Below, piece by piece: positions 14,382 to 57,774 of a DNA stretch of 64,000 bases. Below the pieces are notes generated by a model that worked only from the letters and a program-made list of their open reading frames with translations, made no database searches and was not told the origin of the DNA. A program made the translations under genes and the position numbers. Source of the stretch: Isurus oxyrinchus (Eukaryota); contig JANJGN010000034.1 in assembly GCA_026770705.1 (NCBI GenBank), forward strand, positions 13,020,001 through 13,084,000. Reading direction: 5' to 3'. The first letter of the stretch is position 1; each line of letters begins with the position of its first letter.

Positions 14382-14451
14382 ATGAATTTCTTTCACTTGA
14401 ATCGAACGCCATCCATAATTGGCATCCTCTTAGTCCTTGGATGCTGCTCAT
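14382..14451 (+). CDS. IgV-ITAM receptor, putative exon 1 (signal peptide MNFFHLNRTPSIIGILLVLGCCS)
   Basis: ATG at 14382, hydrophobic core, 70-nt phase-1 exon 114 bp upstream of the V exon; donor T|GTGATG is weak. Confidence 0.55.
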
Positions 14452-14565
14452 GTGATGCTCAATAAAAACTCGAGCGAAGTTTCATGTCACTTCCCACGTG
14501 TTCAGGACTGCGCATGAGATTTTACGCAGCCGGGTTCCTGAAATTGTATCACATCGCTCTTACAG

Positions 14566-14913
14566 GTGGCGTTAGGGGCGGCAAGGGTGAATGCCCGGAG
14601 GTGAATTTTAATGGGTCCCACTCCGTGTCACTACATTGCTCTGACCCATCCTACGCAAGAGCAACCCTCGTCCAGTGGCGCTGGACGGACTCACTGGGAA
14701 AGTGGAAAGAGCTCCTTCTCCTACAAGTCCTGAACGGGAATGTCACGGAGCACCCAGGCCGGTCCGACCTGGGCCTCTCCAGAGAGAGGTGCGTGGAAAG
14801 TGGAGACTGCTCACTGACTATGACACCTACAGGAGATGATGTTGGGCTCTACCATTGCGTTGTGTGGACCAACGCGCGGATTACTGAAGAACAGTCCCTC
14901 CTGGCATATAAAG
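14566..14913 (+). CDS. IgV-ITAM receptor, exon 2 (V-set Ig domain)
   Basis: ctcttacag| acceptor, G|gttaga donor, 348 nt, phase 1-1; SVSLHC, VQWRW, GDCSLTM, DVGLYHC. Confidence 0.9.
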
Positions 14914-15239
14914 GTTAGAGTTTTATCCTGATAGATTCCATACGCAGAACGTATCTTCAGAAGAGAATCCCGAAATGACCAAGGGGTCTTTTAATTGCTT
15001 GGCCCTTGAGTCATGTAGAGAAGGGACTGGAAAACACATCTGTCCCTTGAGACCAGTAAATTCCCCAACAATAGGACTTGCATTTATATAGCTCCTTTCA
15101 CAGCCGCCTGACATCCTTTGTGGAGTAGTCACTGTTGTTGTTGTTGTCAGACAGGAAATGCAGCAGCCAATTTGCGCACAGCAAGCTCCCACCAACAGCA
15201 ATGTGTTGGGGGCCCCACCCATCAGTGCTGTTTCTATTC

Positions 15240-15578
15240 AATCATGGGGATGCAGGCATCACTGGGCCAGGCCAGCATTTATTACCCATCCCTTATTACC
15301 CTAGTTCAGAGGTCATTTAAGAGTCAAACCACATTGCTGTGTGGGTCTGGAGTCACATGTAGGCCAGACCAGGTGAGGACAGAGGATTTCCTTCCCTAAA
15401 TGGCATTGGTGAACCAGATTTTACAACAATCAGCAGTGGTTTTGTGGTCATCATTAGACTTTTAATTCTGGATTTTTATTGAATTCAAATTCCACCATCT
15501 GCTGTGGAGGGAATCAAACCCTGGTTCCCAAAGAATTGCCCTGGGGTCTCTGGATTACTACTCCAGCGATAATACCAC
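15240..15578 (-). mobile_element. tRNA-derived SINE; further copies near 41705-42630 (split by a CR1), 48535-48840, 52790-53090 and 60490-60770
   Basis: Shared core ctggcctacatgtgactccagacccacagcaatgtgg and box-B-like ggttcaaatccc; tail gggcaataaatgctggc is shared with the LINE at 58520-59375. Confidence 0.8.
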
Positions 15579-16299
15579 NNNNNNNNNNNNNNNNNNNNNN
15601 NNNNNNNNNNNNNNNNNNNNNNNNNNNNNNNNNNNNNNNNNNNNNNNNNNNNNNNNNNNNNNNNNNNNNNNNNNNNNNNNNNNNNNNNNNNNNNNNNNNN
15701 NNNNNNNNNNNNNNGTGCGTATGTGCANNNNNNNNNNNNNNNNNNNNNNNNNNNNNNNNNNNNNNNNNNNNNNNNNNNNNNNNNNNNNNNNNNNNNNNNN
15801 NNNNNNNNNNNNNNNNNNNNNNNNNNNNNNNNNNNNNNNNNNNNNNNNNNNNNNNNNNNNNNNNNNNNNNNNNNNNNNNNNNNNNNNNNNNTGTTCTCCT
15901 TCAAAATAGAACCAGCGGGTCCTTCGCCACCCACCCGAGCCTCTCCTAAAAGCTGGCACCTCTGACAGTGCAGCACTCCCCCAGTGCCGCCGCTGGGGTG
16001 ACAGGCCCTGATTTCAGCACGCAAGCCCTGGAGTGGGGCTTGAACCCAGAACCTCGCTGCCAACTGAGGGGCAGCTAAGCACAGACGTGGAAAGCACAGA
16101 CGTCAGTGTCGCATGGTGATTCCGCATGGAATCACGGGTTTGCCAAATTTGAGACTTACAGAGGGCAGCCAAAATGTAATTTGTCAGAATTCAAGAGCAG
16201 TCAAAGTGGGGTCAATAAGGCACACGGCTACTAGCTAGGGGTGTTTACGAAGTAGGCAAAGCCCTCATACCCGCACACAATTGTATTTATAAATCAGAG

Positions 16300-16950
16300 A
16301 TAAAAACAAAAAACTGCGGATGCTGGAAATCCAAAACAAAAACAGAATTATCTGGAAAAACTCAGCAATTCTGGCAGCATCGGCGGAGAAGAAAAGAGTT
16401 GACGTTTCAAGTCCTCATGACCCTTCAACAGAACTAAGTAAAATTAGGAGAGGGGTGAAACATAAGCTGGTTTAAGGTGGGGGGGGTCGTGGGGGGAGAG
16501 AAGCCGTGGGGGTGGTTGTAGGGACAAGCAAGCAGTGATAGGAGCAGATAATCAAAAGATGTCACAGACAAAAGAACAAAGGGGTGTTGAAGATGGTTCT
16601 GTCCAAGGGTCATGAGGACTCGAAACGTCAACTCTTTTCTTCTCTGCCGATGCTGCCAGACCTGCTGAGTTTTTCCAGATAATCCTGTTTTTGTGTTGAA
16701 TGTGGTGATATTATCTAAACGAATGTGCTAATTAAGAATGGATGGTAGGGTACTCAAGGTATAGCTCTAGTGGGGGTGGGGTGAAATAAGACTAAAAGGG
16801 CATAAAAGGTATAGATTTAAAAATAATAGGTGGGAAAAGAAAAATCTGTATAAATTATTGGAAAAAACAAAAGGAAGGGGGGAGAAACGGAAAGGGGGTG
16901 GGGATGGAGGAGGGAGTTCAAGACCTAAAGTTGTTGGAATCAGTATCAGT
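16300..16950 (-). mobile_element. PLE 3' end containing a short oppositely oriented PLE 3' piece (about 16592-16694)
   Basis: Same tail as 12197-12750; the inner piece is the reverse complement of 16335-16432 and is flanked by gtgttgaa on both sides. Confidence 0.85.
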
Positions 16951-17191
16951 CCAAATCTATTGTTACAGCCAAAGCTGGTTAAAGCAGTAGGGCCCTCCAG
17001 GTGTCTCAAAATGTTGCTGCTGCCAGTGTGATCAGAAATACTCGCTCGAGGATATCAGTCTGGGGTTTGGAGGTCAATGTAAAACCTCTGAGGGCCCGTC
17101 TCTGTAAGCAGCCCACCAGTTGCAACGTGCCTCTGTTGTCGGGCGGTTCGGAGCAGTTTTCTAAGTCCCTTCGGTTTCTGTTCCTCCACAG

Positions 17192-17308
17192 CGGGCCTCA
17201 AGGCTGTCCGAGCGACCTACGTGGCTGTGGGGGTCTGCGGGGGTTTGCTGCTTCTCCTGGCTCTCGTCGGGTTGGCTTGGATCTGCAGGCGAAAAGGCAG
17301 AGGTCAGG
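17192..17308 (+). CDS. IgV-ITAM receptor, TM exon (AGLKAVRATYVAVGVCGGLLLLLALVGLAWICRRKGRGQ)
   Basis: ttcctccacag| acceptor, G|gtgagt donor, 117 nt, phase 1-1; hydrophobic helix followed by RRK. Confidence 0.9.
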
Positions 17309-18171
17309 GTGAGTGTGAGGGGCCAAAAGGCCATTGGGTGAGGTAGGGTCTGGAATCGATCCGGGGTATCGCTTGGTGGCCCGCTGTTACCGCCCCCCCC
17401 CCCCACCCCAGATGTTGTCAGCTTGATGTGGGTTCAGTTAGCAAGTCCCTGTGGGGAACATCAATCGCGTTAACCATTGCACTTCACCTTCACCACCCCC
17501 ATCTCCGTTAAGCAGCTGAATGGGAATTAGTAAGTAGAACAATGTGGGAACAATGTGGCCGATAGTCTGCAGCCAGTAGTTGGATGTACTTGGGTGACTT
17601 GAAGCGTCCGGGCTACGTGCCGAGTGCTGGGAGATGGGGTTAGGAATGGACAGGTGCTTGATGGCCAGCACGGACAGGATGGGCCGAAGGGCCTGTTTCC
17701 GTGCTGTACGGCACTGTGACTCCATGACTCATTGCGTCGGGCCGCATTTTAACCCCCAAACCCCCCCCCACCCCCGACCTTTCCCCCTGCTGTCGTTCAA
17801 ACAGTCGACAACGAGGTGCCCGCCCCTTCCACATCCACTGCAGCGCGGTGGAAAGATCAGGCGTGGGCTGTTTCTGGGCGGGCGATTAGACACTTCGGCC
17901 GCTTTCCTAGGCCGCTGGCCAGCGACCACTGGCGTTGACATAGCGCCTTCAACCAACCACATGGGTCGTGCGAGTCAGGCAACAGTGAGCAGGAGCTTAT
18001 CAACAAACACCATAGAAAGCTGGACCCCTTTACTCCTCGCTCGCTCTGCCAGCGCAGGGTAGAACATTATGAACAGTGAGGACCGATTTTGGATGTGAAT
18101 CGGGGGTGGCTTGTTTTTCCCTTGAATATCCCATGTCTAATCTTGCTTTGTTTTCCTTTATGCCACTGCAG

Positions 18172-18191
18172 CTCAGAGTTCTGAATCCCAG
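18172..18191 (+). CDS. IgV-ITAM receptor, cytoplasmic micro-exon (AQSSESQ)
   Basis: Pyrimidine tract plus ctgcag| acceptor, CAG|gtaggc donor, 20 nt, phase 1 to 0 as the next exon requires. Confidence 0.8.
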
Positions 18192-18729
18192 GTAGGCGAT
18201 GATTTAATAAAAGTCGTTGACGAAAATGTTGCCAATCACCGTTATCTTGTAGCCCAATCCTGTTGCTTTAAAAATGTAGCAAATAATTGCCCGTGTACTT
18301 TGGATAACTTTCACCGGGACAAACACAAGAGTACCAAATTGCATTCACACCAGTTCATGCTGCAATAATACAATCATTATGATAACACTTATTATTAATA
18401 AATACTATGATTTGCTTATTTTTCAATGTTTTGCCTCTCCATGGATGATTAATTCATAATCGCCCTGTGACACCATCTTTTTAAGCAGCTTGGCACACAA
18501 ACCAGCATTAATGTCTATCTCCAGGATTATTGTTTACCTTTTTTCAAGTGGACCACTCTAAACATCCACTAAAATGGCAGGGGAAGAATTTCAGGTTCAA
18601 AGATCCCTCCATGATAACCAATGGCCTCATTTCAAAATTTAACTAAAAAAAGATGTTAAGATCATGAAATGACACTTCTGGTAGCAAATGTACACATTTA
18701 GCACTTGGTGTCAACTGTCTCTAGCCCAA

Positions 18730-21150
18730 CGCCTCCTCCTTTACTCCGCCTCCTCCTTTACTCCACCTCCTCCTTTACTCCGCCTCCTCATTTACACCGC
18801 CTTCCGCCTCGTCCATTACTCCACCTCCGCCTTTTCTCCGCCTCCACATTTACTTCGCCTCCTCCTTTACTCCACCTCCTCCTTTACCCCGCCTCCTCCT
18901 TTACCACGTCTCCTCCTTTACTCCGCCGCCTCCTTTACTCCACCTCCTCCTTTACCCCGCCTCCTCCTTTACCACGTCTCCTCCTTTACTCCGCCGCCTC
19001 CTTTACTCCACCTCCTCCTTTACCCCGCCTCCTCCTTTACCACGTCTCCTCCTTTACTCCGCCGCCTCCTTTACTCCACCTCCTCTGTTACTCCTCCTCC
19101 TCCTTTACTTTGCCTCCTCCTTTACTCCACCTCCTCCTTTACTCCACCTCCTTTACTCCGCCTCCTCCTTTACTCCACCTTCCCCTTTACTTTGCCTCCT
19201 CCTTTACTCCGCCTTCTGCTTTACTCCGCCTTCTGCTTTACTCCTCCTCCTTTACTCCGCCTCCTCCATTACTCCGCCTCCTCCTTTACTCCACCTCCTC
19301 CTTTACTCCACCTTCCCCTTTACTTTGCCTCCTCCTTTACTCCACCTCCTCCTTTACTCCGCCTTCTCCTTTACTCCGCCTTCTGCTTTACTCCACCTCC
19401 TCCTTTACTCCGCCTCCTCCTTTACTCCGCCTTCTCCTTTACTCCGCCTCCTCCATTACTCCGCCTCCTCCTTTACTCCGCCTCCTCCTTTACTCCACCT
19501 CCTCCTTTACTCCACCTCCTCCTTTACTCCACCTCCTCCTTTACTCCTCCTCCACCTTTACTCCGCCTCTTCCTTTACTCCACCTTTCCCTTTACTTTCT
19601 CTCCTCATTTACTCCACCATCTCCGTTACTCCACCTCCTCCTTTACTCCACCTCATTTACTCCGCCTCCTCCTTTACTCCGCCTTCTCCTTTACTCCACC
19701 TCCTCCTTTACTCCACCTCCTTCTTTACTCCACCTCCTCCTTTACTCCGCCTTCTCCTTTACTCCACCTCCTCCTTTACTCCACCTCCTTCTTTACTCCA
19801 CCTCCTCCTTTACTCCGCCTTCTCCTTTACTCCACCTCCTCCTTTACTCCGCCTCCTCATTTACACCGCCTTCCGCCTCGTCCATTACTCCACCTCCTCC
19901 TTTACTCCACCTCCTCCTTTACTCCACCTCCTTCTTTACTCCACCTCCTTCTTTACTCCACCTCCTCCTTTACTCCGCCTTCTCCTTTACTCCACCTCCT
20001 CCTTTACTCCACCTCCTTCTTTACTCCACCTCCTCCTTTACACCGCCTTCTCCTTTACTCCACCTCCTCCTTTACTACACCTCCTCCTTTACTCCGCCTT
20101 CTCCTTTACTCCACCTCCTCCTTTACTACACCTCCTCCTTTACTCCACCTCCTTCTTTACTCTGCCTCCTTCTTTACTTTGCCTCCTCCTTTACTCCGCC
20201 TCCTCCTTTACTACACCTCCTCCTTTACTCCGCCTCCTCCTTTACTCCGCCCCCTCCTTTACTCTGCCTCCTCCTTTACTCCGCCCCCTCCTTTACTCCG
20301 CCCCCTCCTTTACTCCGCCTCCTCCTTTACTCCGCCTCCTCCTTTACTCCGCCTCCTCCTTTACTCCACCTCCTCCTTTCCTCCACCTCCTCCTTTACTC
20401 CACCTCCTCCTTTACTACACCTCCTCCTTTACTCCACCTCCTCCTTTCCTCCACCTCCTCCTTTACTCCACCTCCTCCTTTACTCCACCTCCTCCTTTCC
20501 TCCACCTCCTCCTTTACTCCACCTCCTCCTTTACTCCACCTCCTCCTTTCCTCCACCTCCTCCTTTACTCCACCTCCTCCTTTACTACACCTCCTCCTTT
20601 ACTCCACCTCCTCCTTTACTCTGCCTTCTCCTTTACTTTGCCTCCTCCTTTACTCCACCTCCTCCTTTACTCCGCCTCCTCCTTTACTCCGCCCCCTCCT
20701 TTACTCCGCCTCCTCCTTTACTCCACCTCCTCCTTTCCTCCACCTCCTCCTTTACTCTGCCTTCTCCTTTACTTTGCCTCCTCCTTTACTCCACCTCCTC
20801 ATTTACTTTGCCTCCTCCTTTACTCCACCTCCTTCTTTACTCTGCTTCCTCCTTTACTCCACCTCCTCCTTTACTCCACCTCCTCCTTTACTCCACCTCC
20901 TCCTTTACTACACCTCCTCCTTTACTCCACCTCCTCCTTTACTTTGCCTCCTACTTTACTCCACCTCCTCCTTTACTCCTCCTCCACCTTTACTCCGCCT
21001 CTTCCTTTACTCCACCTTTCCCTTTACTTTCTCTCCTCATTTACTCCACCTCCTCCTTTACTTTGCCTCCTACTTTACTCCACCTCCTCCTTTACTCCAC
21101 CTCCTCCTTTACTCCACCTCCTCCTTTACTCCACCTCCTCCTTTACTCCC
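18730..21150. repeat. 17-bp pyrimidine-rich minisatellite (actccacctcctccttt)n, 2.4 kb, intronic
   Basis: Directly visible; explains ORFs at 18688-21220. Confidence 0.97.
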
Positions 21151-21799
21151 CCATCTGCTGAGCAAGTGTTATTGCAGGATTACTAGGTTCATTGTGGAGG
21201 TGGAGCTAATAATTTTTTGAAATTTATGGGATGTGGGCATCACTGGCTGGGCCAACATTTATTGCCCATCCCTAATTGCCCCTTCAGAAGGTGGTGGTGA
21301 GCTGCCTTGAGCCACTGCAGTCCCTGCAGTGTAGGTACACCCACAGCGCTGTTAGGGAGGGAGTTCCAGGATTTTGACCCAGCGACAGTGACGGTACAAT
21401 AGCATCAAACTAAGGGCACAACGATTGGTTTTAAAATGGGGGTTTGGATGACGGCTCAGTGCCGAGAATTCCCCACCATCTTCCACACATCTTAAATATT
21501 GCAGCTGATCACAACTCCCTGATGCGGAAGTAATTGTTCAACAGGCTGGGTAAGATCAGGCCTTTCTCCTTGCATCACTGAGTAGACCCTGATCCTCAAA
21601 TGGGCACTAGTGAGTCAGCAACCCATTTCACACCTGGCTTCATTTTTACTCCCTGTTGACTTCAATAATATCCAGATGTATTTGATAGTAATAATACCAG
21701 CGTCAGTGAACTGTTCTCTGTTGCCTTTGTTAATAGTAGTTAGTAATGGTTATTAATAGCCAGAGAAAGGTCACTTTCTGTTGTGTTCATTAATTACAG

Positions 21800-21832
21800 A
21801 ATCAAAGAAGAAACTTAGATTCGACTTACATG
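21800..21832 (+). CDS. IgV-ITAM receptor, cytoplasmic exon (NQRRNLDSTYM), first ITAM tyrosine
   Basis: taattacag| acceptor, ATG|gtaagc donor, 33 nt, phase 0-0. Confidence 0.85.
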
Positions 21833-21939
21833 GTAAGCGTGCGAGCAGATTTACTACCTCACAGTTTCTTCCTTTAACATGACGGAGTTATCCAGCCGGG
21901 TTAAATGTCCATTCATGCTTTTTCTCATTTTCTACAAAG

Positions 21940-21987
21940 GGCCTGAACTTGAGTGACCGTCAGCTTTACAGCAATCTGGGGTGGTAA
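21940..21987 (+). CDS. IgV-ITAM receptor, last coding exon (GLNLSDRQLYSNLGW*), completes the ITAM
   Basis: tttttctcattttctacaaag| acceptor; completes YMGL-x7-YSNL; TAA at 21985-21987. Confidence 0.85.
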   Translation, partial: GLNLSDRQLYSNLGW

Positions 21988-22489
21988 GATCAGATTTCTC
22001 GATTTGAAATAGCCACAGGGTCATTATGGCACTGAAGGAGGCCGTTCGGCCTATCGAGGGCCGGCTAGCTCTCCGCCGAGCAGCCCAGTCGGTCCCCTCC
22101 TTCCGCTCTATCCCTCTGCACCCCCCCCCCCCCACAAATTCATTCTCCCCCCACTTGCCGATCTGATTTTCCTTTGAAATCATTCACCGCCTCCCCTTCC
22201 ACCACCCTCGTGGGCAGCGGGTTTTGGGTCAATGCTCACCGCATTGAAAAAGCTCTCTCTCGTATTCCACCACCCCCCCGCCCCACCCACCCACCGTTTC
22301 TCTTGCCCCCGAAACCTTACTTCTGTGTCCCTTAGCCTCTGTGCCAATGGGTAAAGAGAATGAATTTTTTTTTGCCACCTCATCTAAACCTGTCAGAACC
22401 TTGTCCAGCTCCATCAAACCTCCCCTCAGCTCCAAGGGGAAGGAGCCCAGCTCCTCCAGCCTGAGCTTAAAACCCAGAACACCCCATTA

Positions 22490-25104: not shown

Positions 25105-25182
25105 ACACACGCACTGTTGTGGGAGGGGTGGGGGGGGGGTGGGTGGGGTGATGGGTAATATAGGGGTTAAGTAAGTATTTAT

Positions 25183-26468: not shown

Positions 26469-26484
26469 TGCCTCTAAATGTATA

Positions 26485-31610: not shown

Positions 31611-31656
<46 letters not shown>

Positions 31657-31663
31657 CACACAC

Positions 31664-32604: not shown

Positions 32605-33126
32605 CACACACACATATACATACACTCTCTCTCTCTCTCTCTCTCATGCACACAGACACACACACATACAGGCACTGAGAGCTCAGAGGGTTAATGTCAA
32701 TCTCACTCCAGTCAACCAGGGAATAAATTCGAAGAATAACACAAGCAAAATTGAAACTCGTTGAGTTTCATTCTGGATTAGGCACTGCAAGTTTATCCCC
32801 ACCGTACATTGATGATGTGACTGCTGACTGACTTCAAGACAAACATTAAATTTGACTCTTTACTCGGTTAGCTGTAAATATATCAGGGTGTAAAGCATCT
32901 GAGAGCACAGCTGATATGAAAAAGGTGGAATACAGCGTGGGTAATGGAGAGTGAAGCTCCTCTATAGAATGAATGGTTCTTGTTGTTGGTGAATTTAGGA
33001 GCTGGAGTTTATGTTTGAAGAGGTTCCTAGTGCCTCTAACAGCTGAACTGGGGCCTCTGGGAAGAGAGGCTATGCCTGCTGTTGTTTCCCCTCCTGTCCA
33101 CTGGAGGCCCATCTTGCTCTCCTCAG

Positions 33127-34545
33127 GAGAGAGAAGAGAGAGAAAAGGGACAGAGAGTAAAAAAGAGACAGAGGGAGAGAGAAAAAAGAGACAGAGGGAG
33201 AGAGAAAAAAGAGACAGAGGGAGAGAGAAAAAAGAGACAGAGGGAGAGAGAAAAAAGAGACAGAGGGAGAGAGAAAAAAGAGACAGAGGGAGAGAGAAAA
33301 AAGAGACANNNNNNNNNNNNNNNNNNNNNNNNNNNNNNNNNNNNNNNNNNNNNNNNNNNNNNNNNNNNNNNNNNNNNNNNNNNNNNNNNNNNNNNNNNNN
33401 NNNNNNNNNNNNNNNNNNNNNNNNNNNNNNNNNNNNNNNNNNNNNNNNNNNNNNNNNNNNNNNNNNNNNNNNNNNNNNNNNNNNNNNNNNNNNNNNNNNN
33501 NCAGAGAGTAAAGAGACAGAGGGAAAGAGAACGAGACAGAGAGAAAAGTGAGAGAGAACAAAGACATTGAGAGAGAAAAAGAGAGAGAGAGAAAAAAGAG
33601 AGAGAAAAAAGAGAGAGAAAAAAGAGACAAAGAGAGAGAAAAAGAGATGGAGAGAGAGAGAGAGAAAGAGACAGAGAGAGAGTAAGAGGCAGACAGAGAG
33701 AGACAAAAGAGACAGAGGGAGAGAGAAAAAAGAGACAGAGAGAGACAGAGAGAGAAATAGATGGACAGAGAGAGAAAAAGAGACAGAGGGAGAGAGAAAA
33801 AGAGACAGAGAGAGAAAAAAGAAACAAAGAGAGTAAAGAAGCAGAGAGAGAAAAAAAGAGATAGGGAGAGAGAGAAAAGGGAACAGAGTAAAGAGGCAGA
33901 GAGAGATGAAAACAGACACAGAGAGAGAAAGAGACAGAGAGAGAAAAAGACAGAAAATAGAGATAGATAGAAAGAAACAGACAGAGAGAGAAAAAGAGAC
34001 ACGTAGAGAAAAAGAGAGAAAATAGAGACAGAGAAAGAAAGAAACAGGCAGAGAGAGAAAAAGACTCAGAGAAAACGAGACAGAGAGAGAGAAAAGGAAG
34101 AGAGGTAGATAAAAAAGAGACAGAGAGAGAAAAAAAGAGAGGGAGAGAAAGAGAGAGAGGAAGAGAAAAAAAGAAACAGAGAGTAAAGAGACAGAGGGAA
34201 AGAGAACGAGACAGAGAGAAAAGTGAGAGAGAACAAAGACATAGAGAGAGAAAAAGAGAGAGAGAGAAAAAAGAGAGAGAAAAAAGAGACAAAGAGAGAG
34301 AAAAAGAGACAGACAGAAAAGGAAACAGAGAGAGAGAAAAGAGATGGAGAGAAAAAAAAGACGGGAAGAGAGAAAAACAGACAGAGAGAGAAAAACAGAT
34401 AGAGAGAGAGAAAAGGCAGAGAGAGAAAAAAAGAGACGGGGAAAAAGACAGAGAGAAAAACAGAGAGAGAGAAAAGGCAGAGAGAGAGAAAGAGAGACAA
34501 AGGGAAAAAGACAGAGAAAGAAAAAAAGACAGGCAGAGAAAAAAT
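33127..34545. repeat. AG-rich low-complexity tract with an N gap
   Basis: Directly visible (agagacagagggagagagaaaaa units). Confidence 0.95.
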
Positions 34546-35071
34546 CAGCTGGGGCTGCGATTCAGGCAATATCTTCACCCTCACACAAACCTCAGAGGCA
34601 AACTTGACATGTTTGTGTTTGAAAAATATACTTTATTCTTAAAATATCTGTAAGATCATTACAAAACACTTCAAAATGGCCATCACAAAAAGGGCAATCA
34701 CATTCCAGTCTTTCCAGAGGCAAACTTCACACACCGATGTACTAAACTCAGGCAATCCACATGCGGAGAGACAGAATGGCTGTCAAACTCACCCTGACAT
34801 ACCTCCAGGTGGGTCAGGCCTCCCAAATCACAGTTCGTCCAATCAGGTGCCAGCTACCTCCACCGCACACACAGGTATGGGGCAGATCAAGGTTGATCTT
34901 GGTGGAATGGGAGGGTGGGGGTAGAGGGGGATGGAGAGGGTAACCTCCAGGCAAATGGTTTAGCCCAGAGCTGTCTCTGTCCTTGTCTGCACTAGTCCCA
35001 AGCCACAGAACCAATGGAATACACAAAGGCTCCAATTTAAAGCGTGATGCCAGCCAGCATATCCTGGGAAC

Positions 35072-35932
35072 AGGTCTGACAGCATCTGTGGAGAGGAAGA
35101 CAGAGTTAACGTTTCGAGTCCTTATGACTCTTCAAGAGCCATACGGACTCGAAAAGTTAACCCTGTCTGAAGAGTCATACGGACTCGAAACGTTAACTCT
35201 ATCTGAAGAGTCATACGGACTCGAAACGTTAACCCTGTCTGGAGAGTCGTACGGACTCAAAACGTTAACTCTGTCTGAAGAGTCATACGGACTTGAAACG
35301 TTAAGCCTGTCTGAAGAGTCATACGGACTCGAAATGTTAACTCTGAAGAGTCATACGGACTCGAAACGTTAACCCTGTCTGAAGAGTCATACGGACTCGA
35401 AATGTTAACCCTGTCTGAAGAGTCATACGGACTCGAAATGTTAACCCTGTCTGAAGAGTCATACGGACTCGAAATGTTAACCCTGTCTGAAGAGTCGTAC
35501 GGACTCGAAACGTTAACTCTGTCTGAAGAGTCATACGGACTTGAAACGTTAAGCCTGTCTGAAGAGTCATACGGACTCGAAATGTTAACTCTGAAGAGTC
35601 ATACGGACTCGAAACGTTAACCCTGTCTGAAGAGTCATATGGACTTGAAATGTTAACCCTGTCGGGAGAGTCATACGGACTTGAAATGTTAACCCTGTCT
35701 GGAGAGTCATACGGACTCGAAACATTAACCCTGTCTGGAGAGTCATACGGACTCGAAACGTTAACTCTGTCTGAAGAGTCATACGGACTCGGAATGTTAA
35801 CCCTGTCTGAAGAGTCATACGGACTCGAAACGTTAACTGTATTCCTCTCCGCAGATGCTGTCAGACCTGCTGAGTTTTTCCAGCTATTTTTGTTTTTGTT
35901 TCAGATTTCCAGCATCCACAGTCTTTTGCTAT
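35072..35932 (+). mobile_element. PLE-derived insertion: short inverted 3' piece, about 20 x 36-bp hammerhead-like units, PLE tail; 12-bp TSD
   Basis: Unit ctgtctgaagagtcatacggactcgaaacgttaacc; tatcctgggaac at 35060-35071 and 35933-35944; tail matches the PLE at 62903-63035. Confidence 0.9.
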
Positions 35933-36650: not shown

Positions 36651-37057
36651 CCCTCACTCTGCACTATCCTGTCACTGCAACCCGATATTTGAAATGATAC
36701 AATGCTGCCAGATTGTGGTCATCAACTATTACTGCAGGGACTACATGAAATATCGGCAGGTGTAGGGGGAGGGAATGTGCTTTGTCAAGGAGGGACAGAA
36801 CAAATCTTCAAATTAACCACACACCTCAGGTACAAATCCTTATCACCCTCCTAATAGGGTGTGCCATTCATGAGCTCGGGATAATGCCTTGAAATCAGAA
36901 ACCCTTCCTGTTCAGACACGTTTCTTTGATAGAGGCAAAGGTTACAAAATATTTTATTAAACTCATCTGCCCACTGGTGGAGGGGGCAGACCAGGACAAC
37001 TCCAGTTACTGACAGACTTGTAAAGCAGCAGCTTTCCCACACTGATTATTGGTAATC

Positions 37058-40335: not shown

Positions 40336-41119
40336 GGATCCTGAAGACAGACAGAAAGAGGAAGCCAGGGTAATAGCACCGCCGTCAAAACGAAACCGTA
40401 AATTCTGCAAAATCTTACTAAAATGAGAAGCAGCATAATCACAATCATATGACTGAAGCTCTGTCATCTATAGCTGTGTCACATGACATGTAAATATTGA
40501 CGTGTATGGCATCATCGCACCATTTCAAAGAGGGGTGGGTGGTGGGGGGGGCGGGGGAGGGGGGGGTGTGGGGGTGGTGCGGGGCGAGTCCTTCCCAGTG
40601 TTCAGGCCAGTGTTTATTCCTCAACCAACATCGCTTGAGCCAGGGGACGCGGTCATTCTCTGGTACTGCTGTCTCTGGGATCTTACTGTGCGCGCAGATC
40701 GGCCGCCGCGATTCCCACGCCGACCCCCACCCACCCCACCCCCACTTCCACCTCATTGGCTGCGAAGCGCTCTGGGGCGTCCTGCGGACGTGAAGGGCGC
40801 TACCGGAATGAAAGCCTCTCCTGTGGCTGATTGATAAATAAGCGAGAGGCGACAAGAACGGACAATGGACAGCCCAAGCTTAGGAAGGAGGCAGTCGCAC
40901 ACTGTGAGGCGCTTGGGTTTATAGCGTCTGCGAAAGCAAAGGGGCGAATTTGATCCAAGTTGCAGAATGCACGTTGCGGACGAGATGGTAAATTCAGAGC
41001 TTGTTCTAACGGTGTAGCTGCGCTGGGCCTCCGAGCTGTTGTGACACATTGGAGCTCCGCACGTATCCCATTGCCTGGAATCATTAGCATGTGAACTGTC
41101 CCGTCCATGCGGCCTGTCT

Positions 41120-41239
41120 CTAGTTAGTACTAACATCCGCGTTCACCGTTGCTTCTCCTTCCCAGTTCTCTCTCCTTGCAGGGTTATCACCATCCACTAC
41201 GTTCAGGTTGAGAGTTGCGTGAACAATAATATGGTTCCG
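41120..41239 (-). CDS. Nectin/PVR-like receptor, exon 8 (RNHIIVHATLNLNVVDGDNPARRENWEGEATVNADVSTN*)
   Basis: ttttgtcaatag| acceptor, phase 0 matching exon 7, TAG at 41122-41120. Confidence 0.8.
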   Translation of the reverse strand, partial: RNHIIVHATLNLNVVDGDNPARRENWEGEATVNADVSTN

Positions 41240-42717: not shown

Positions 42718-42752
42718 CTTTTGTGGTGAATGTTTAGCTTTTGATTTGGTGC
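42718..42752 (-). CDS. Nectin/PVR-like receptor, exon 7 (GTKSKAKHSPQK)
   Basis: ttctttttctttattcaaccag| acceptor, AAG|gtaagt donor, 35 nt, phase 1 to 0. Confidence 0.85.
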
Positions 42753-47117: not shown

Positions 47118-47231
47118 CCTCAATTTTCCGTCTTTTCTTCGCTATCACAACGGCTAGAAAGACAGCGATCAATAATGTCCCAACAACCGTCCCCAGAACA
47201 ATGTACACCAAGGTGGATCCAAGTGACTTGC
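47118..47231 (-). CDS. Nectin/PVR-like receptor, exon 6 (TM; GKSLGSTLVYIVLGTVVGTLLIAVFLAVVIAKKRRKIE)
   Basis: ttttacag| acceptor, G|gtgagc donor, 114 nt, phase 1-1. Confidence 0.93.
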
Positions 47232-47410
47232 CTGTAAAATTCCAAGCAGAGGGGGTGTTATTCTATTTATTGCATGGGCAAGCGATGAATGAAATCTTCC
47301 CATTGAGCACCTTGATCACTGTACACATTGTCCCGTCCAGGCAGCTCCTCGTTTCCACGCAATGGGGACATTGGCATTAAAATGCAACAGCACACTTTCT
47401 TGGAGTTTAC

Positions 47411-47577
47411 CTGCACTGGAGTCCACCTCTCTCACTACAACTGCAATTCTTCCCTTCCCTTTCCCAACGGCGTTTGTGGCTTCACAGACCCAGGTTCCAT
47501 TGACCGAGCGATCCACTTGATCGATAAATAGATGATTTCCTTCTCCTCGAGCACTTTCAGGCACTGGTCCCGTGGTC
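47411..47577 (-). CDS. Nectin/PVR-like receptor, exon 5 (second half of Ig3)
   Basis: gatccag| acceptor, G|gtaaac donor, 167 nt, phase 2 to 1; NGTWVCEATNAVG. Confidence 0.93.
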
Positions 47578-49253: not shown

Positions 49254-49371
49254 ATTGTCCAGTGGTAGGTTGTTGCTGGAGGATTTGCCTCAGCAATGCA
49301 GCTGAGGCTGACATTGTGTCTGTTTACATGCCAATTGGCGTCATATCCTGTAATCGACACCTCCGGAGGGT
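49254..49371 (-). CDS. Nectin/PVR-like receptor, exon 4 (first half of Ig3)
   Basis: ctctggttag| acceptor, AT|gtatgt donor, 118 nt, phase 1 to 2; YPPEVSITGYDANW..LSCIAEANPP..YHW is typical of nectins. Confidence 0.94.
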
Positions 49372-49729
49372 CTAACCAGAGAAAACAAAATGTCAAAAAG
49401 CGATCAGTGAGCTCTTTTCCATACTGCTAATTTAGAATAAAATATAATAATGCAGAACTGCAAATGATAGGTATTTGCCCCAGTATATTTCCCAACCCAT
49501 AAATAGAATTCTAGTCAATTAAACTCCTTAATTGTTGTGTTGCTGCACAGTTTATAATGGCGGAAATAGACAATCCTTCATTCAGTTGTATGTGTTTTTT
49601 AGGTAAAATAAAGAACACATGGATTAACAATAATTGAGACACTTAGTTATTTTTCTTTAAAACAAAGATATGAAGGCAATCAACTGTCATGTCTCTCAGA
49701 GAAACAACTGCAGTTTCAGAGTCCACGCA

Positions 49730-50540
49730 CCATTCACCCACCCAAATACCCACCAATCCACCCAACCACCAATCCACCCACCCACCAATCCACTCACTCG
49801 CCGACCCAAATTCCCACTCACCCACCCACCCAGCAATCCACCCACCCAAATACCCACTCACCCACCCACCCACCAACCCACCCAAATACCCATTCACCCA
49901 CCCAACCACCAATCCACCCACCCAAATACCCACTCACCCACCCAAATACCCACTCACCCACCCACCCAAATACCCACTCACCCACCCACCCACCTACCCA
50001 CTCACCCACCCAACCACCAGTCCACTCACCCAAATACCCAAACACCTACCCACCAACCCACCAATCCACCCACCCACCAATGCACCCACCCACCCACAAA
50101 CCAATCCACCCACCAACCCACCAATCCACCCACCCACCAATCCACCCACCCACCAATCCACCCACCCAAATACCCACTCACCCACCCACTAACCCACCAA
50201 TCCACCCACCCACCAATCCACCCACCCAAATACCCACTCACCCATCAATCCACCCACCCACCAATCCACCCACCCACCCACCAATTTACCCACTCACCAA
50301 TCTACCCACCCAGCCACCCACCAATCCACCCACCCAAATACCCACCCACTAATCCGCCCACCCACCCAAATATCTGGCAATCCACCCACCCAAATACCCA
50401 CGCCCCCCACTCACCAATCCATCCACTCAAATACCCACCCACCCAAATATCCACCCACTCACCATCCACCCACCCACCAACCCATCCACCCATCCATCCT
50501 CCCACCCATGCACCCATCTATCCACCTACCCACCAATCCA
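49730..50540. repeat. (CCAC/CCAAT)-rich low-complexity tract, intronic
   Basis: Directly visible. Confidence 0.93.
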
Positions 50541-50664
50541 TGTTATCATACTCATTGTTGGCCTGTGGTTATATAAATGATTCAACAACGCAGTTCATGT
50601 ATTAATCAGGCAGTTTCAGTTGGGTTTTTTTTTTCTCAGAATAACTTCCTCCTCTGATACTTAC

Positions 50665-50958
50665 ATCGGACTGATATTGTCACTGGTAAGCTCACCCGAT
50701 CTCTCAATGCCTTGTGGGATACTACGCATGTCAACTTCTCCCCATTGGCCTCCCTGGTGGCCGATATTCTGTACTGGCTGGTGATGGTGACTGTCCGGTC
50801 TGGATGTTCGGTCTGACTCGACGTGACTGCCCCTGGGACTTTGGCCACCCATGTTATATCAGCTGCCGGCTTCCCATTGGCTGCTGTGCAAGTGGCGACC
50901 AGGGCTTCTGACAACCCAGTGTCTGTTGGGAAGGTGATGATGCTATTGATGGGCTTCA
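50665..50958 (-). CDS. Nectin/PVR-like receptor, exon 3 (Ig2, C-type)
   Basis: gacctcag| acceptor, T|gtaagt donor, 294 nt, phase 1-1; VATCTAANGKPAADITW..TVTITSQY..LTCVVSH. Confidence 0.95.
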
Positions 50959-52275: not shown

Positions 52276-52623
52276 CCAGGACTGTTAAGTTGATGTGGGA
52301 TTCGTGCTTTCCAGTGGGGAATACGTTCACCTCACAGCTGTACAAGCCTTCGTCAGCCAATTCTAAAGGGTTGATTGTCAGGGTGCAGTTCCGGGAAGAT
52401 GCGTTGTGGAAGGTGACTCTCTCCGATGGGGTCGGGTAACTGGTCCCGAAGAACGGGTTGTACACGGCCAGGTTCTCACTCATTGGCCCAGCTTGTCTCA
52501 ACCACGTCACCTGCACGACTGTAACGTTGGAGTCGTCGCTGATGAAATGGCAGGGGAGTTTCAGGCCTTCACCAGCATTCCCCATTATAACATCATCGAC
52601 TTTAATGTTCTGTGTTACCGCGA
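52276..52623 (-). CDS. Nectin/PVR-like receptor, exon 2 (IgV)
   Basis: ccctacag| acceptor, G|gtaggt donor, 348 nt, phase 1-1; LPC, VVQVTW, AVYNPFFG (AX6G), DEGLYSC, VFPTG. Confidence 0.95.
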
Positions 52624-54837
52624 CTGTAGGGTGGGATAAGAAGAAAAAGTGACTCTCTGGCAGCCATCTCTGAATGCGAATACAGCAATGCCAAGACGCC
52701 AATGAACCTTGCTTAGGTATTTGGCAGAAGCCCAATTTGATTTTTTTTTTTCCCAAGCACTCTGCTTTAATTTTTAAAAGATTTATTTAAGGGCATCACC
52801 GGGTAGGCCAGCATTTATTGCCCATCCCTAATTGCACCTACTCAGAGGGCATTTAGGAGCCACATGTAGGGCAGACCAGCAGATTCCCTTCCCTAAAGGG
52901 GCGTAATTGAACCAGATGGGTTTTTAACAATTGATTACTGGTCACAATCAGGCTTTTAACCCTAGATTTTTTAATTGAATTCCACATTGGCTGTGGTGGG
53001 ATTTGGAACCTGGGTCCCCAGAGCATTACCTTGGGTTGTGGGATAAGACAAGTCCAGTGACAATGCCACTATGCCAACACCTCCCCCAGGTGGACTGCTG
53101 TCCCCAAATTTGGTTAAGTAGCCAACATCAGAGATTGAAAAATTCAGTTTGAGAACAATCTAAAAAACAGAAATGATTATCGTAAGAAGGGTTTTCACTT
53201 ATTCATAGGGTTCTTTGAGAATATGTCAGTATATGTAACCATTCAATGTAAAAATGTGAATAGCCCTGAGAAGTTCAATTAAAAAAAAACAAAATTCTTA
53301 GTGTCATGCATACTGGCACTAAAAACGTATTAGTGAATGCAGTTGTTACACTGACAACCACTCCGACAGATTCTACATTATTCAAGAGGGAAACTTTATT
53401 TTTCAAACCTCAAAGGCCAAAAGTGTGAACAGTTCTGCAGTTTATTTTAAATAGCTTCAGTACATGTGACCAAGGTAGTTCATTTAAAAATGAATACAGG
53501 GGAGGCCACTTCGGACTGAGATGAGGAGAAACTTCTTCACTCAGAGGGTGGTGAATCTGTGGAGGCCAAGTCACTGAATATATTTAAGAAGGAAATAGAT
53601 AGCTGTCCATACTCTAAAGGCGTCAAGAGGTGTGGGGAGTCTGCGGAAGTGTGGTGTTGAAATAGAGGATCAGCCATGTGAATAGTGGAACAGGCTCCAA
53701 GGGCTGAATGACCACCACCTGGAAATTCGCCTCCAAGTCACTCACCATTCTGACTTGGAAATATATCGGCTGTTCCTTCACTGTTGCTGGGTCAAAATCC
53801 TGGAATTCCCCTCCTAACAGCACTGTGGGTGTACCTACACCACATGGACTGCAGCGGCTCAAGAAGGCAGCTCACCACCGCATTCTCAAGGGGCAATGGA
53901 GGATGGGAAATAAATACTGGCCCAGCCAGCGAAGCCCACACTCTGTGTTTGGGTAAAAAAAAGGCTGCTTTTTTTTTTGCCATGGGTCATCCATATTTGA
54001 ACGTGTGTTAGTTCCAGCATTAGGGCCGCCCATTATTAAAACATTCTTTTAAAAAAAAATTGCTGTGCAAAATTACTTTTATAAATTCATACGTAATTTC
54101 TTTATGGCACTATATTCAAAATATTTCCTTGGTAGGATAGTTCACTCAATAGACGAGGGGAGATGTTCATATATTGCCAACTGAATTGTAAAATTGTCAG
54201 TTCGTTAATGTTAAGTCTTTGTAAATTGATTATCCCAGACTGGAAACCAATTGAGCTTAAAAACATAGATTATTAGACAGAAAAGAAAAATCTAGCATAC
54301 AGCGAGAGTGTTTTTAAACATCTCCCCTCCCAACTCCCGCCCTTATGGATATGCCCGTGGTCTTTAACATAGCAAAGGAAAATAATATATTCGAATTCGA
54401 GTTTAATTGAAGTTGAATATAAGATGTTGTCTTCCCTGGGCAAAGCTGAAGAAAAAGATGCTCCAAAAGTTGGAAATGCTGTTTTGTTCGTCCACAACAG
54501 AAAGGGTTTGTTTTTCATTGCATGAATCCAGGAACATGTTGCTCCGCCCTTTCTGCAAACCGGCAGAGAGAAGTTAACCCTTTCTGCTGAACTTTTTTTT
54601 CCACCCAAATATAATGTTCACTCACTCCACAACTTTTGCACCGCTGGGTGTAAATTTATACAACCGGCATTATTGAGTTATAAGTTTTTAAGTTGACGGC
54701 ATATGACTGGGCGATATCCCAAATCTCAAAGGGTAACCAGCCAATGGGTCTGGAACTCTGCAATTGGAAAGCACAGCGGACCCAACATCAGCGAAGGTTT
54801 ATGCGTCCCCGACTCTTGTAACGTAGAATGATAAATA

Positions 54838-56795
54838 CCCCACGGAACTCATTTCTCGTTATCTTGACTCCCTTCTCTCTCCCCTTGTCCAGTCCCTTCC
54901 CACCTACATCAGTGATTCCTCTGACACCTTACGTCACATCAACAATTTCCAATTCCCTGGCCCCAACCGCCTTCTCTTCACCATGGACGTCCAATCCCTC
55001 TACACCTCCATCCCCCACCAGGATGGTCTGAGGGCCCTTAGCTTCTTCCTCGAACAGAGGCCCGAACAATCCCCATCCACCACCAATTTCCCCCGTCTGG
55101 CTGAACTTGTTCTCTCATTGAACACCTTCCTTAAACTAGTCCCACTTCCTCCAAATAAAAGATGTGGCTACGGTTACCCGCATGGGCCCCAGCTATGCCT
55201 GTCTCTTTATGGGGTATGTGGAACATTCCTTGTTCCAGTCCTACTCTGGCCCCCTCCCACAACTCTTTCTCCGGTACATCGATGATTATTTCGGTGCCGC
55301 TTCATGCTCTCGTCGGGACCTGGAAAAATGTATTAATTTTGCTTCCAATCTCCACCCCTCCATCATTTTCACATGGTCCATCTCTGACACTTCCCTTCCC
55401 TTCCTTGACCTCTCTGTCTCAATCTCTGGTGATAGACTGTCCACCAATATCCATTACAAGCCTACTGACTCCCACAGCTACCTCGACTACAGCTCCCTAC
55501 ACCCCACTTCCTGTAAGGACTCCATCCCATTCTCTCAGTTCCTTCACCTCCGTCGCATCTGTTCTGATGATATAACCTTCAAAAACAGTTCCTCTGACAT
55601 GTCCTCCTTCTTCCTTAACTGAGGTTTTCCACCCACGGTCGTTGACAGGGCCCTCAACTGTGTCCGGCCCATCTCCCGCGCATTCGCCCTCACGCCTTCT
55701 CCTCCCTCCCAGAAACATGATAGGGTCCCCCTTGTCCTCACTTATCACCCCACCAGCCTCCGTTTTCAAAGGATCATCCTCCGCCATTTCCGCCAACTCC
55801 AGCATGATGCCACCACCAAACACATCTTCCCTTCACCCCCCCCTAGTGGCATTCCATAGGGATCGCTCCCTCCGGGACACCCTGGTCCATTCCTTTATCA
55901 CCCCCTACTCCTCCTCCCACGGCATCTTCCTATGCAAATGCAGAAGATGCAACACCTGCCCCTTCAATTCCTCTCTCCTCACCGTCCAAGGGCCCAAATA
56001 CTTCTTTCAAGTGAAGCAGCATTTCACTTGCATTTCCCCCAACTTAGTCTACTGCATTCATTGCTCCCAATGTGGTTTCCTCTACATTGGAGAGATCAAA
56101 CGTGGACTGGGTGACCGCTTTGCAGAACACCATTGGTCTGTCTGCAAGAATGACCCAGACCTCCCTGTCGCTTGCCATTTCAACACTCCACCCTGCTCTC
56201 TTGCCCACATGTCTGTCCTTGGCTTGCTGCATTGTTCCAGTGAAGCTCAACGCAAACTGGAGGAACAACACCTCATCTTCTGACTAAACACTTTACAGCC
56301 TTCCGGACTGAATATTGAGTTCAACAATTTTAGGTCTCGAACTCTCTCCTCCATCCCCACCCCCTTCCCATTTCTTCCCCCTTCCTTTTTGTTTTTTCCA
56401 ATAGTTTATATAGATTTTTTTCTTTTCCCACCTATTTCCATTATTTTAAATGTATTTCCACCATTGTTTATTTCTACCTTTTAGTATTCCCCCACCCCCA
56501 CTAGAGCTATCTGTACCTAATTAGCATATTCCTTTAGACAATATCACCAGCTTCAACACCTCTGTTCTTTTGTCTGTGACAGCTTTTGGTTATCTCCACC
56601 TATCACTGACTGCTTGTCCCAACAAACCCCCCCCCCCCCACCCCCCTTAAACCAGTTTATATTTCACCCCTTTCTTAATTTTACTTAGTTCCGTAGAAGG
56701 GTCATGAGTACATGAAACTTCAACTGTACTCTTTGCCGCTGATGCTGCCATATCTGCTGAGTTTTTCCAGGTACTTCTGTTTCTGTTTTTGTTAT
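54838..56795 (+). mobile_element. 5'-truncated, frameshifted PLE in intron 1 of the nectin-like gene
   Basis: MDVQSLYTSIP, FLRYIDDYF and LVYCIHC..YIGE in broken frames; PLE 3' tail. Confidence 0.93.
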
Positions 56796-57725
56796 GGTAA
56801 ATACCAATGCCGTTCTAAAGACCATTCTGGGCCGAATACAAAAGTCCTTCATCATTGAATGTAATACAACTCCTGCAGAACGTAGAGTTCTCAACAACCA
56901 AGGCCCGGGTTCCCTAACATTTTACACAATTTACAAATACATGTGTACACACAGATGCCTATACACACACATAAATATACACACAGACACATATAAATAC
57001 AAGCANNNNNNNNNNNNNNNNNNNNNNNNNNNNNNNNNNNNNNNNNNNNNNNNNNNNNNNNNNNNNNNNNNNNNNNNNNNNNNNNNNNNNNNNNNNNNNN
57101 NNNNNNNNNNNNNNNNNNNNNNNNNNNNNNNNNNACACACATAAGTACAAACACACAAATACACACAGATACACACATAAATATACACACATAAATACAC
57201 ATACAAATACACAAATGCAAACACACACACAAATACACGCACACAAACACACATATAAATAAACACAAACACATACACACATATATACACACATATATAC
57301 ACGCATATCAATACACACATACACACATGTAAATACACACAAACATACATAAACACACATATAAACACACAAGTACACACAAACACATTTCCGCCATCAA
57401 CAGAGTGGAGATATGTTAAGATTGATCGTTCGCCAGCATTTAAATGTCACACTTCTTCCATCAAATAAGGCGCTCACAATAAATGAACCATTACTATACA
57501 GTCCCACCTTGAAAATGGTATCTGGACACGGGTAATAATTTTCCCGGACAGAAATAACGTTCCGATCCTCCAAAATGTTACATGGTCAGTAACAGGCATT
57601 TTCACGGTTCCCTTTCTACGGGACAGGATCTTTATTTATTTTTTTAAATCGCATGGTTGTACATGTGAAGGAACTGGATCAGAAGTGAGAGAGCAAGGGC
57701 GCGAACTTGGCAGAACCAAACCTAC

Positions 57726-57774
57726 CTGTGCAAAGAGCCAGCTGGACAAACCAGGCGAGATTAACTGAACTCAT
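57726..57774 (-). CDS. Nectin/PVR-like receptor, exon 1 (signal peptide MSSVNLAWFVQLALCT)
   Basis: gcgATG start, G|gtaggt donor, 49 nt, phase 1, joins the V exon in frame; lies in a CpG-rich region. Confidence 0.82.

Follow-up and report, generated by a model that had tools for sequence, protein, structure and literature searches.

Paired receptors are a known design, and the locus analysed here raises the question of whether two immunoglobulin (Ig) superfamily genes lying tail to tail in the genome of Isurus oxyrinchus form such a pair. The original prediction proposed an activating gene with an ITAM (gene A, plus strand) and a nectin-like inhibitory gene with a disabled ITIM/ITSM tail (gene B, minus strand). 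We analysed the 64,000-nucleotide stretch that contains both (hereafter the window) together with its flanks on the same contig (C34). Both genes were intact, with 19,130 bases between their stop codons, or ~13 kb if gene B uses its alternative last exon at 35085-34963. Their exon borders were drawn from splice sites and from related RefSeq models. The predicted start of gene A gave way to an upstream leader with a better donor (Table 1).

Table 1. Features of genes A and B, in window coordinates
Feature	Position	Strand	Support or remark
Gene A exon 1, leader	14002..14047	+	GTAAGT donor; 16/16 identical to great white RefSeq model P0023; best-supported start
Gene A alternative leader (originally predicted start)	14382..14451	+	Open, weak donor GTGATG; probably unused
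Gene A exon 2, G6f-like/LAG-3-type V domain (the sole Ig domain; additional cysteines)	14566..14913	+	Pfam V-set E 1.3e-4
Gene A transmembrane exon, membrane stretch without charged residue	17192..17308	+	RefSeq P0001/P0023
Gene A short cytoplasmic exon	18172..18191	+	Agrees with P0023
Gene A cytoplasmic exon, ends at first ITAM tyrosine (..DSTYM)	21800..21832	+	
Gene A last exon, remainder of ITAM (GLNLSDRQLYSNL) and stop	21940..21987	+	
Gene B exon 1, leader	57726..57774	-	16/16 identical to RefSeq P0033
Gene B nectin-type V domain, AX6G and FPxG motifs	52276..52623	-	Nectin-1 best match among solved structures, E 2e-21
Gene B second Ig domain (CD80-like C2-set)	50665..50958	-	Pfam C2-set_2 E 4.7e-18
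Gene B third Ig domain, first half	49254..49371	-	
Gene B third Ig domain, second half	47411..47577	-	
Gene B transmembrane exon	47118..47231	-	
Gene B short cytoplasmic exon	42718..42752	-	Agrees with P0033
Gene B last exon, tyrosine-free ITIM-shaped (IVHATL) and ITSM-shaped (TVNADV) motifs	41117..41239	-	
Gene B alternative last exon, without tyrosine motif	34963..35085	-	In two lamniform RefSeq models (P0010, P0033)

The six exons of gene A, with AG/GT borders, encode an open 203-aa protein comprising a leader, a V domain, a transmembrane stretch and a tail. The tail carries YMGL-x7-YSNL, split over two exons (21827-21832 and 21940-21978), in agreement with the ITAM definition Yxx(L/I)-x6-12-Yxx(L/I) found in the available part of PMC3528668. 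Shuffling of the tail produced an ITAM-type motif in 162 of 100000 trials, and the motif was kept in seven of eight retrieved proteins, representing all seven shark species retrieved, the eighth protein (P0006) being a shifted isoform. We take CD79a, NFAM1 and DAP12 to be look-alikes of this ITAM; the same cassette is also borne by many unrelated ectodomains. No second intact copy of the V exon was found genome-wide (one match among 12 candidates; a search with P0036 found only the gene A pseudogene), these searches giving lower bounds. Judged from its sequence, gene A is likely a stand-alone activating receptor.

The V domain of gene A was modelled from 21 sequences with a pLDDT of 87, replacing an earlier model from 7 sequences that was unusable (pLDDT 43). 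LAG-3 D1 gave the highest identities (23-26%) among the top fold matches, which failed to separate LAG-3 from CAR, JAML or TCR V domains, and sequence matches in the PDB were weak (TIM-1, E 0.0026; fibronectin, E 0.011; LAG-3, E 0.023). Gene A might be a thrombocyte or matrix-sensing receptor like teleost G6f-like and not a leukocyte receptor for self/non-self pairing, a reading compatible with the one we prefer, from which it departs in cell type and ligand alone. The V domain aligns with g6f-like-type proteins (P0043, named g6f-like), and several orthologs have a YxN together with the split ITAM, as in G6fL according to the available text of PMC3528668. However, V identity is only 17-27%, a single extracellular V domain is present instead of the four Ig domains of G6f-like, the gene in the window lacks the Grb2-binding YxN before its ITAM, and its ITAM cassette recurs on many unrelated ectodomains; we regard this reading as unlikely.

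Gene B consists of eight exons (57774 to 41117) encoding an open 414-aa protein in the order leader-V-C-C-TM-tail, a V-C-C ectodomain with a single membrane pass that matches the nectin/PVR layout. Among the PVR motifs listed in the available part of PMC4749091, AVYNPFFG and FPTG are exact and VVQ stands for (V/I)(S/T)Q. The protein has no PDZ (afadin)-binding C-terminus and ends in ADVSTN or ETALG; a nectin-end-like last exon near 36920 was rejected, as it is used by no ortholog. In its tail the two tyrosine positions are taken by His in IVHATL (41227-41210) and by Asn in TVNADV (41149-41132), and in two RefSeq models splicing removes the end of the second motif. The view that this is a former ITIM holds, because a paralog and a sevengill-shark ortholog bear Tyr at both places. 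Across nine ortholog species, the first position is Tyr in two (Heptranchias and Mustelus), Phe in five and His in two, and the second Tyr is kept in one, its other occupants being Asn, His or Val. Read from these alignments, the tail is a pair of tyrosine motifs that lost their tyrosines, and gene B now likely serves as a ligand or in adhesion without signalling itself; the narrower assignment as a silent ligand falls slightly short of probable.

All 9 of 9 orthologs conserve the motif scaffold ATLNL plus T-x-x-[AT]-D-[IVLM] despite the changing tyrosines, which would suit an inhibitory receptor acting through a tyrosine-free motif (xVxATLNL), or a motif used for sorting, and FxxL-based inhibition is known in LAG-3 (available part of PMC10768021). 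The lamniforms, however, have His and not Phe, the replacements at the second site look like relaxed selection, and the end of that motif is missing from the two spliced models, so that an inhibitory or sorting role for gene B is doubtful. An ITIM in place of the PDZ motif, as in PVR/CD155, is found in its paralog C and not in gene B.

Annotation of the flanks placed A and B at the edge of a larger cluster of six Ig genes and one pseudogene in ~210 kb. The suggestion of a receptor cluster was thus borne out in that Ig receptors with opposing tails are gathered here, but A and B are probably not its pair. Beyond the window lie gene C (ITIM+ITSM), gene D (ITAM), a TIGIT-shaped gene E (single PVR-type V domain, membrane stretch, IVYASL motif) and a broken paralog of gene A. 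We are highly confident of the cluster and gene structures as described. The Pfam scans covered ~292 of 435 candidate frames within 200 kb on each side and 147 of 274 farther out, and small-exon genes (BCL3, TOMM40) may have been missed because of this partial coverage.

A CBL gene copy is located 80 kb from gene A and is a third CBL, since CBL-B and CBL were located on contigs C18 and C24. A nectin ending in GSIISKRAVYV, whose V domain best matches nectin-1, lies 0.65 Mb away at C34:13.73 Mb. Together these two flanking genes suggest the human CBLC-NECTIN2-PVR region, and the shark cluster likely corresponds to the human poliovirus-receptor locus, a candidate orthology by position and not by tree: gene B, beside the third CBL, has nectin-1 as its best sequence match, and our trees contained no human rows. 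A stricter search with CLPTM1, a neighbour gene at human 19q13.32, gave matches on C31 and C3 and none on C34, and an apolipoprotein 1.6 Mb away best matched APOA4, not APOE.

The cluster resembles human chromosome 19 PVR/NECTIN2 beside CBLC in having a CBL-family gene and an AVYV-ending nectin nearby, and differs in that several genes stand in tandem, one of them with an ITAM of its own, and in the lost tyrosines of B. Genes B and C are like PVR/CD155 in their V-C-C ectodomain, PVR motifs, missing PDZ end and ITIM-type tail, as far as the available parts of PMC7286890 and PMC10827653 describe it, the former dating nectin-2 to tetrapods and confining PVR to placental mammals. Gene E matches TIGIT in its single PVR-type V domain, membrane stretch and IVYASL, and opposing receptors within one nectin family recall the TIGIT/PVRIG (CD112R)/CD226/CD96 network (both as outlined in the available part of PMC4749091). 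The human receptors differ in having distinct ectodomains. They also lie on other chromosomes than their ligands, and CD226 is not known to have an ITAM.

The pairing sought in A and B was found in C and D, which stand head to head, in opposite orientation, 4-50 kb past the window end, as open genes of 401 and 412 aa with AG/GT borders. The tail of C has IVYAAL and TVYADV (ITIM+ITSM) and that of D has YMGL-x7-YSEL (ITAM), while their V domains are 90% and their constant domains 99% identical. Both tyrosines of C are kept in 5/5 species, and the same ITIM/ITAM duo occurs in RefSeq models of Cetorhinus, Carcharodon and Mustelus, with the ITAM form in Stegostoma. In V trees, C and D grouped by species (window C+D, 99/98; Cetorhinus, 100/99), as did the Mustelus pair in the constant domains (100/99), unlike the tails, which grouped by motif type (98/96). 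An ITAM-only V clade was rejected with a p-AU of 9e-54, for an ITAM group chosen after the tree was inspected. The second V tree had 26 rows versus 31, after C18_52, C11_118.2, C11_117.3, C5_170 and C34_6.42Mb were dropped for long branches or frame breaks. Between the C and D V exons there were 12 non-synonymous and 1 synonymous changes versus 9 in 1050 bases of intron (p 1.5e-4). The variable sites crowd the front face (29/48 versus 14/65, p 3e-5, with face segments chosen post hoc), and across three lamniforms V variation affected 29/113 sites in C versus 11/115 in B (p 0.002). In Mustelus the V domains of C and D share only 58% identity, so the matching of ectodomains is not tight everywhere, and part of the conversion signal could be mimicked by recent independent duplications. 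We consider it probable that C and D act as paired receptors.

The C/D pair fits the CEACAM paired-receptor model, which A+B does not. In the available part of PMC5112662, CEACAM1/CEACAM3 and Xenopus ceacam genes share with C/D the combination of ITIM/ITSM and ITAM genes in opposite orientation, conversion-matched ectodomains, front-face non-synonymous changes and an intron-split ITAM, and they lie near the same human chromosome band, with a bcl3 flank in Xenopus. C/D differ in having nectin/PVR-type ectodomains and not CEACAM N domains, in a conversion that extends to introns and constant exons, and in that a pathogen ligand in sharks is hypothetical. An ordinary tandem duplication of adhesion-type genes, with a recent C/D similarity and no immune pairing or pathogen pressure, would draw on nectins being adhesion molecules, on the many unassigned nectin-like genes of early vertebrates (available part of PMC7286890) and on a pN versus pS comparison that, within the C/D V exon alone, was not significant (p 0.31). 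It is improbable, as the leader, membrane stretch and tail of D are orthologous across species (90-91% identity) while the ectodomains sort by species, C/D variation sits on the front face, and B, C and D lack the PDZ-binding end that the nearby true nectin has.

A and B themselves are probably not a pair, given their unrelated ectodomains and the missing tyrosine motif of B. As had been noted, the ectodomains are not close paralogues; hhalign of the two families found the membrane stretch only, with a probability of 25%. None of the three PVR-family motifs is present in the V domain of gene A. Complex prediction with the two V domains gave a median of 0.28 against a mark of 0.34 (runs of 0.04, 0.66 and 0.28), which favours neither binding nor its absence. 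That A and B nevertheless form one functional unit, with A as activating receptor and B as its ligand or decoy partner, is very unlikely: they are adjacent, convergent and, in 5/5 other species with both genes retrieved, on contigs of equal length, both V domains are conserved (95% identity to great white) and CD226-named clusters occur among gene A look-alikes in a protein-cluster atlas, but gene A lacks the motifs common to nectin-binding receptors (available part of PMC4749091), and the linkage is explained by conservation of the whole cluster, the A+B juxtaposition alone being an ordinary cluster neighbourhood. The linkage across species is drawn from these equal lengths and not from distances; in Heptranchias, the gene B ortholog and A-related V-C2-ITAM proteins are on different contigs.

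The explanation we prefer, and consider fairly probable as a whole, is that A is a stand-alone ITAM receptor, B is silent, and C and D are a brake-and-accelerator pair. Known families suggest that, once A or D clusters, Src-family kinases would phosphorylate the ITAM and recruit Syk/ZAP-70. By the same analogy, the tails of C and of the single-V gene E would bring in SH2 phosphatases. D may serve as a decoy, so that a ligand aimed at C, in all likelihood an adhesin from a pathogen, would trigger activation on binding; the ectodomains of the two head-to-head genes would stay matched through gene conversion. Most speculatively, B, with its conserved V domain and a tail silent in this lineage, might serve C, D or E as a self ligand in the manner of PVR/CD155.

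More tentatively, and with somewhat less than balanced expectation, sharks may have retained, at the CBLC-NECTIN2 locus, an immune complex of PVR/nectin type that is expanded and self-contained (members A, A2 and B-E), in which B would be a conserved ligand whose ITIM tyrosines were dropped several times, C an inhibitory receptor, D an ITAM nectin conversion-matched against a pathogen, E a TIGIT-shaped brake, and A and A2 G6f-like-type ITAM receptors built from one shared ITAM exon cassette. If so, the immune use of PVR-type nectins would date to early jawed vertebrates, PVR-type ITIM nectins would be as old as jawed vertebrates instead of having arisen in placental mammals, and there would be a nectin-based paired-receptor system with no mammalian counterpart. 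A literature search, with subscription journals largely outside its reach, found no paper on this shark cluster and no nectin ectodomain with its own ITAM. The cluster members would be candidates to test as NK-like or phagocyte receptors of cartilaginous fish, and the natural Tyr/Phe/His series of gene B could show how an ITIM scaffold functions once its tyrosine is gone.

Among the sequencing runs listed for gene A, none was an RNA run on record. For gene D, a contig from run X3 (record 9; presumed RNA, one sample) joined the last ectodomain exon directly to the transmembrane exon proper to D over 148 + 110 letters, the ITAM exons not being among its listed pieces. An Arg in the membrane stretch of D was rejected as an adaptor-pairing residue, as Carcharodon and Cetorhinus have Gly there and a contig from the same sample reads a Gly codon.

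Two Ig-superfamily receptor genes, A and B, lie tail to tail in the window with 19,130 bases between their stop codons, in agreement with the original prediction of two such genes about 19 kb apart. The prediction had also implied an activating/inhibitory pair, but a profile comparison of the two families aligned the membrane stretch alone (probability 25%); it had itself remarked that the ectodomains are not close paralogues. As it had anticipated, a scan of the flanks (1.2 Mb, C34:12.61-13.81 Mb) revealed further Ig receptor genes, C, D, E and F and a broken paralog of A, and in the proposed comparison across elasmobranchs, A and B were on equal-sized contigs in all five other species with both (Carcharodon, Heterodontus, Scyliorhinus torazame, Mustelus and Pristis). 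We conclude that the observation and the cluster inference were right and the implied pairing wrong, A and B being neighbours inside a conserved cluster, linked rather than paired. Most likely, A would be an ITAM receptor acting alone, B a PVR-like ligand or adhesion molecule stripped of its tyrosines, and the true paired receptors would be C and D, with pathogens exerting the pressure on them. The data show gene structure and evolution, and all signalling and ligand steps are those that we infer. The proteins of the window were 93-95% identical to their Carcharodon and Cetorhinus counterparts, which identifies the DNA as lamniform. The splices of A and B are predicted.

Features of the window and of the surrounding contig JANJGN010000034.1 (C34; L-numbers are loci on it; the window spans C34:13020001-13084000), from left to right within the cluster
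Feature	Position	Strand	Description
C2-type Ig gene, leftmost	C34:12647633-12651688	+	two C2/I-set exons with CEACAM-type constant domain likeness (L122-L123); the CBL gene follows 0.3 Mb to the right
CBL gene	C34:12.954 Mb		
Broken gene A paralog	C34:13011250-13019255	-	two stops in V exon (L041)
Gene A	window 14002-21987	+	six predicted exons, AG/GT borders, 203 aa
Gene B	window 57774-41117	-	eight predicted exons, 414 aa
Gene C	C34:13,088,362-13,106,618	-	ITIM+ITSM (L002-L007, with D)
Gene D	C34:13113184-13134020	+	ITAM
Gene E	C34:13159658-13167588	-	one V domain of PVR type, a membrane exon and a tail with IVYASL...IVYGIV (L009-L010); leader sought, not located
Gene F	C34:13216554-13220953	+	divergent V plus I-set/C2 domain (L015); membrane exon and tail not found
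Proviral remnant	C34 about 13.249 Mb (L018:5189-6263)		Pfam retroviral integrase C-terminus, weakly envelope
Tectonin-domain (lectin-like) gene	C34 about 13.256 Mb (L019:1898-2901)		right of cluster
Nectin ending GSIISKRAVYV	C34:13718477-13734711	-	at 13.73 Mb (L043-L045, L076); second membrane exon downstream at 13697606
Long simple tandem arrays	window 1600-9900, 18685-21183, 32850-34650, 35100-35900, 49600-50600		spurious long open frames

The gene A product comprises a leader, one Ig V domain, a membrane stretch without charge and a 40-aa tail ending DSTYMGLNLSDRQLYSNLGW. The predicted ITAM was found in this tail, split over two exons by a phase-0 intron after YM; an ITAM-type motif occurred in 162 of 100000 shuffles of the tail. 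The start had been placed at 14382, where the donor is weak; the leader at 14002 is better supported, with a GTAAGT donor and an exact match to the great white RefSeq model. One long tandem array occupies most of a gene A intron. A database search returned eight unnamed proteins from seven sharks, seven of which kept the ITAM, the eighth being a shifted isoform from a species that also has an ITAM form, and a sawfish protein combines a gene A-type V domain with an ITAM. The V domain was confidently modelled as an Ig V-set fold (pLDDT 87), for which a fold search gave similar scores to CAR, LAG-3, JAML and TCR domains, the top identities being to LAG-3 D1 (23-26%), and none of the three PVR motifs was present in it. 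Teleost G6f-like proteins, described in the available part of PMC3528668 as collagen receptors of thrombocytes with four Ig domains, a YxN motif and a split ITAM, resemble gene A on paper, but gene A fails two of the defining features, and its V domain reached 17-27% on alignment with g6f-like proteins. In sharks, rays and sturgeon, unrelated ectodomains carry the same tail cassette, YM-x-L-x7-Y-S-x-L.

The broken paralog, head to head with A, is a homolog of the intact Mustelus V-C2-ITAM protein P0036 and still has a YVNV exon. The A proteins of Mustelus, Heterodontus and Scyliorhinus carry a membrane and tail region of the paralog's type, hinting at tail swapping.

Gene B encodes a V-C-C protein with PVR motifs, a membrane stretch and a tail carrying IVHATL and TVNADV; nectin-1 was its best solved match (E 2e-21), and its C-terminus has no PDZ-binding end. 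Of nine ortholog species, Heptranchias and Mustelus retain the first tyrosine, five have Phe in its place and two have His; the second survives in Heptranchias only. Since both tyrosines are also present in paralog C (5/5 species), the tail was formerly an ITIM-like/ITSM pair, as predicted, and the scattered distribution suggests that tyrosines were lost more than once. The description of this tail as disabled is likely to hold for the His versions and is not extended to Phe, because residues flanking the lost tyrosines are still conserved and FxxL is inhibitory in LAG-3 (available part of PMC10768021). An alternative last exon (window 35085-34963), with its acceptor within the common repeat word CTCTCCACAGATGCTG present at many places, is possibly an exonized repeat.

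Genes C and D are head to head with 6.5 kb between their leaders. The C tail has IVYAAL...TVYADV at its end, and D has a leader and membrane exon of its own plus YMGL-x7-YSEL, the only ITAM cassette besides that of A in the scan. The two genes share 90% identity in the V domain and 99% in the constant domains, the shared stretch including introns and reaching its limit at the membrane exon. ITIM and ITAM types occur together in RefSeq models of Cetorhinus, Carcharodon (where the ITAM type is represented by two V-only genes) and Mustelus, and the ITAM form in Stegostoma. In trees, ectodomains clustered by species and tails by motif type, and an ITAM-only V clade, a group defined after the first tree was viewed, was rejected (p-AU 9e-54). 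The C and D V exons differ by 12 non-synonymous changes and one synonymous change, a higher rate than in the introns (p 1.5e-4 against 9 changes in 1050 bases, counted over the seven flanks that align without gaps; an eighth had one change and one gap), and the excess over synonymous sites alone was not significant (p 0.31). Variable sites were denser on the V front face (29/48 versus 14/65, in segments chosen by us), and the Mustelus C and D V domains are only 58% identical. One contig of run X3, possibly RNA, connects the last ectodomain exon with the D membrane exon. These are the same signs on which Xenopus ceacam genes were called paired receptors (available part of PMC5112662), and from sequence comparison C and D are candidate head-to-head nectin-type paired receptors with converted ectodomains. 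In the assembly, the D membrane stretch contains an Arg (L006:6900, C34:13130900), and one contig of the same sample has a Gly codon there, as in other lamniforms, so that a charged/uncharged variant may segregate. The YVNV of D relatives is SVNV in D of this species.

In human, PVR adjoins CBLC and NECTIN2, and nectin-2 has AVYV at its C-terminus. The shark nectin ending in AVYV is a candidate NECTIN2. Among three CBL N-terminal exons in the genome, those on contigs C18 and C24 closely match CBL-B and CBL, so that, by elimination, the putative CBLC is the divergent third copy, at a distance of 80 kb from A. Against a simple match to the human region count the CLPTM1 matches on contigs C31 and C3, an apolipoprotein at C34 14.67 Mb with APOA4 as best match, and the V domain of the AVYV-ending nectin, with nectin-1 as best match. 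On human chromosome 19, CBLC is at 45.30 Mb and NECTIN2 at 45.39 Mb (available part of PMC10827653). The available part of PMC7286890 assigns nectin-2 to tetrapods and PVR to placentals, with nectin-like proteins of no assigned type in early vertebrates. The shark cluster is not described in the available parts of PMC3628338, PMC13262535 and PMC12065747 or in any paper of the literature searched; subscription journals and supplements, outside that scope, could cover it.

Gene E resembles TIGIT/PVRIG in layout (single PVR-type V, membrane exon, tail motif). A further gene with a V domain of PVR type and the motifs VEYAVL and TVYAVV lies 5.5 Mb off at C34:7513589-7526600 (+; L047-L050), and a broken copy was found at C34:6424346 (6.42 Mb).
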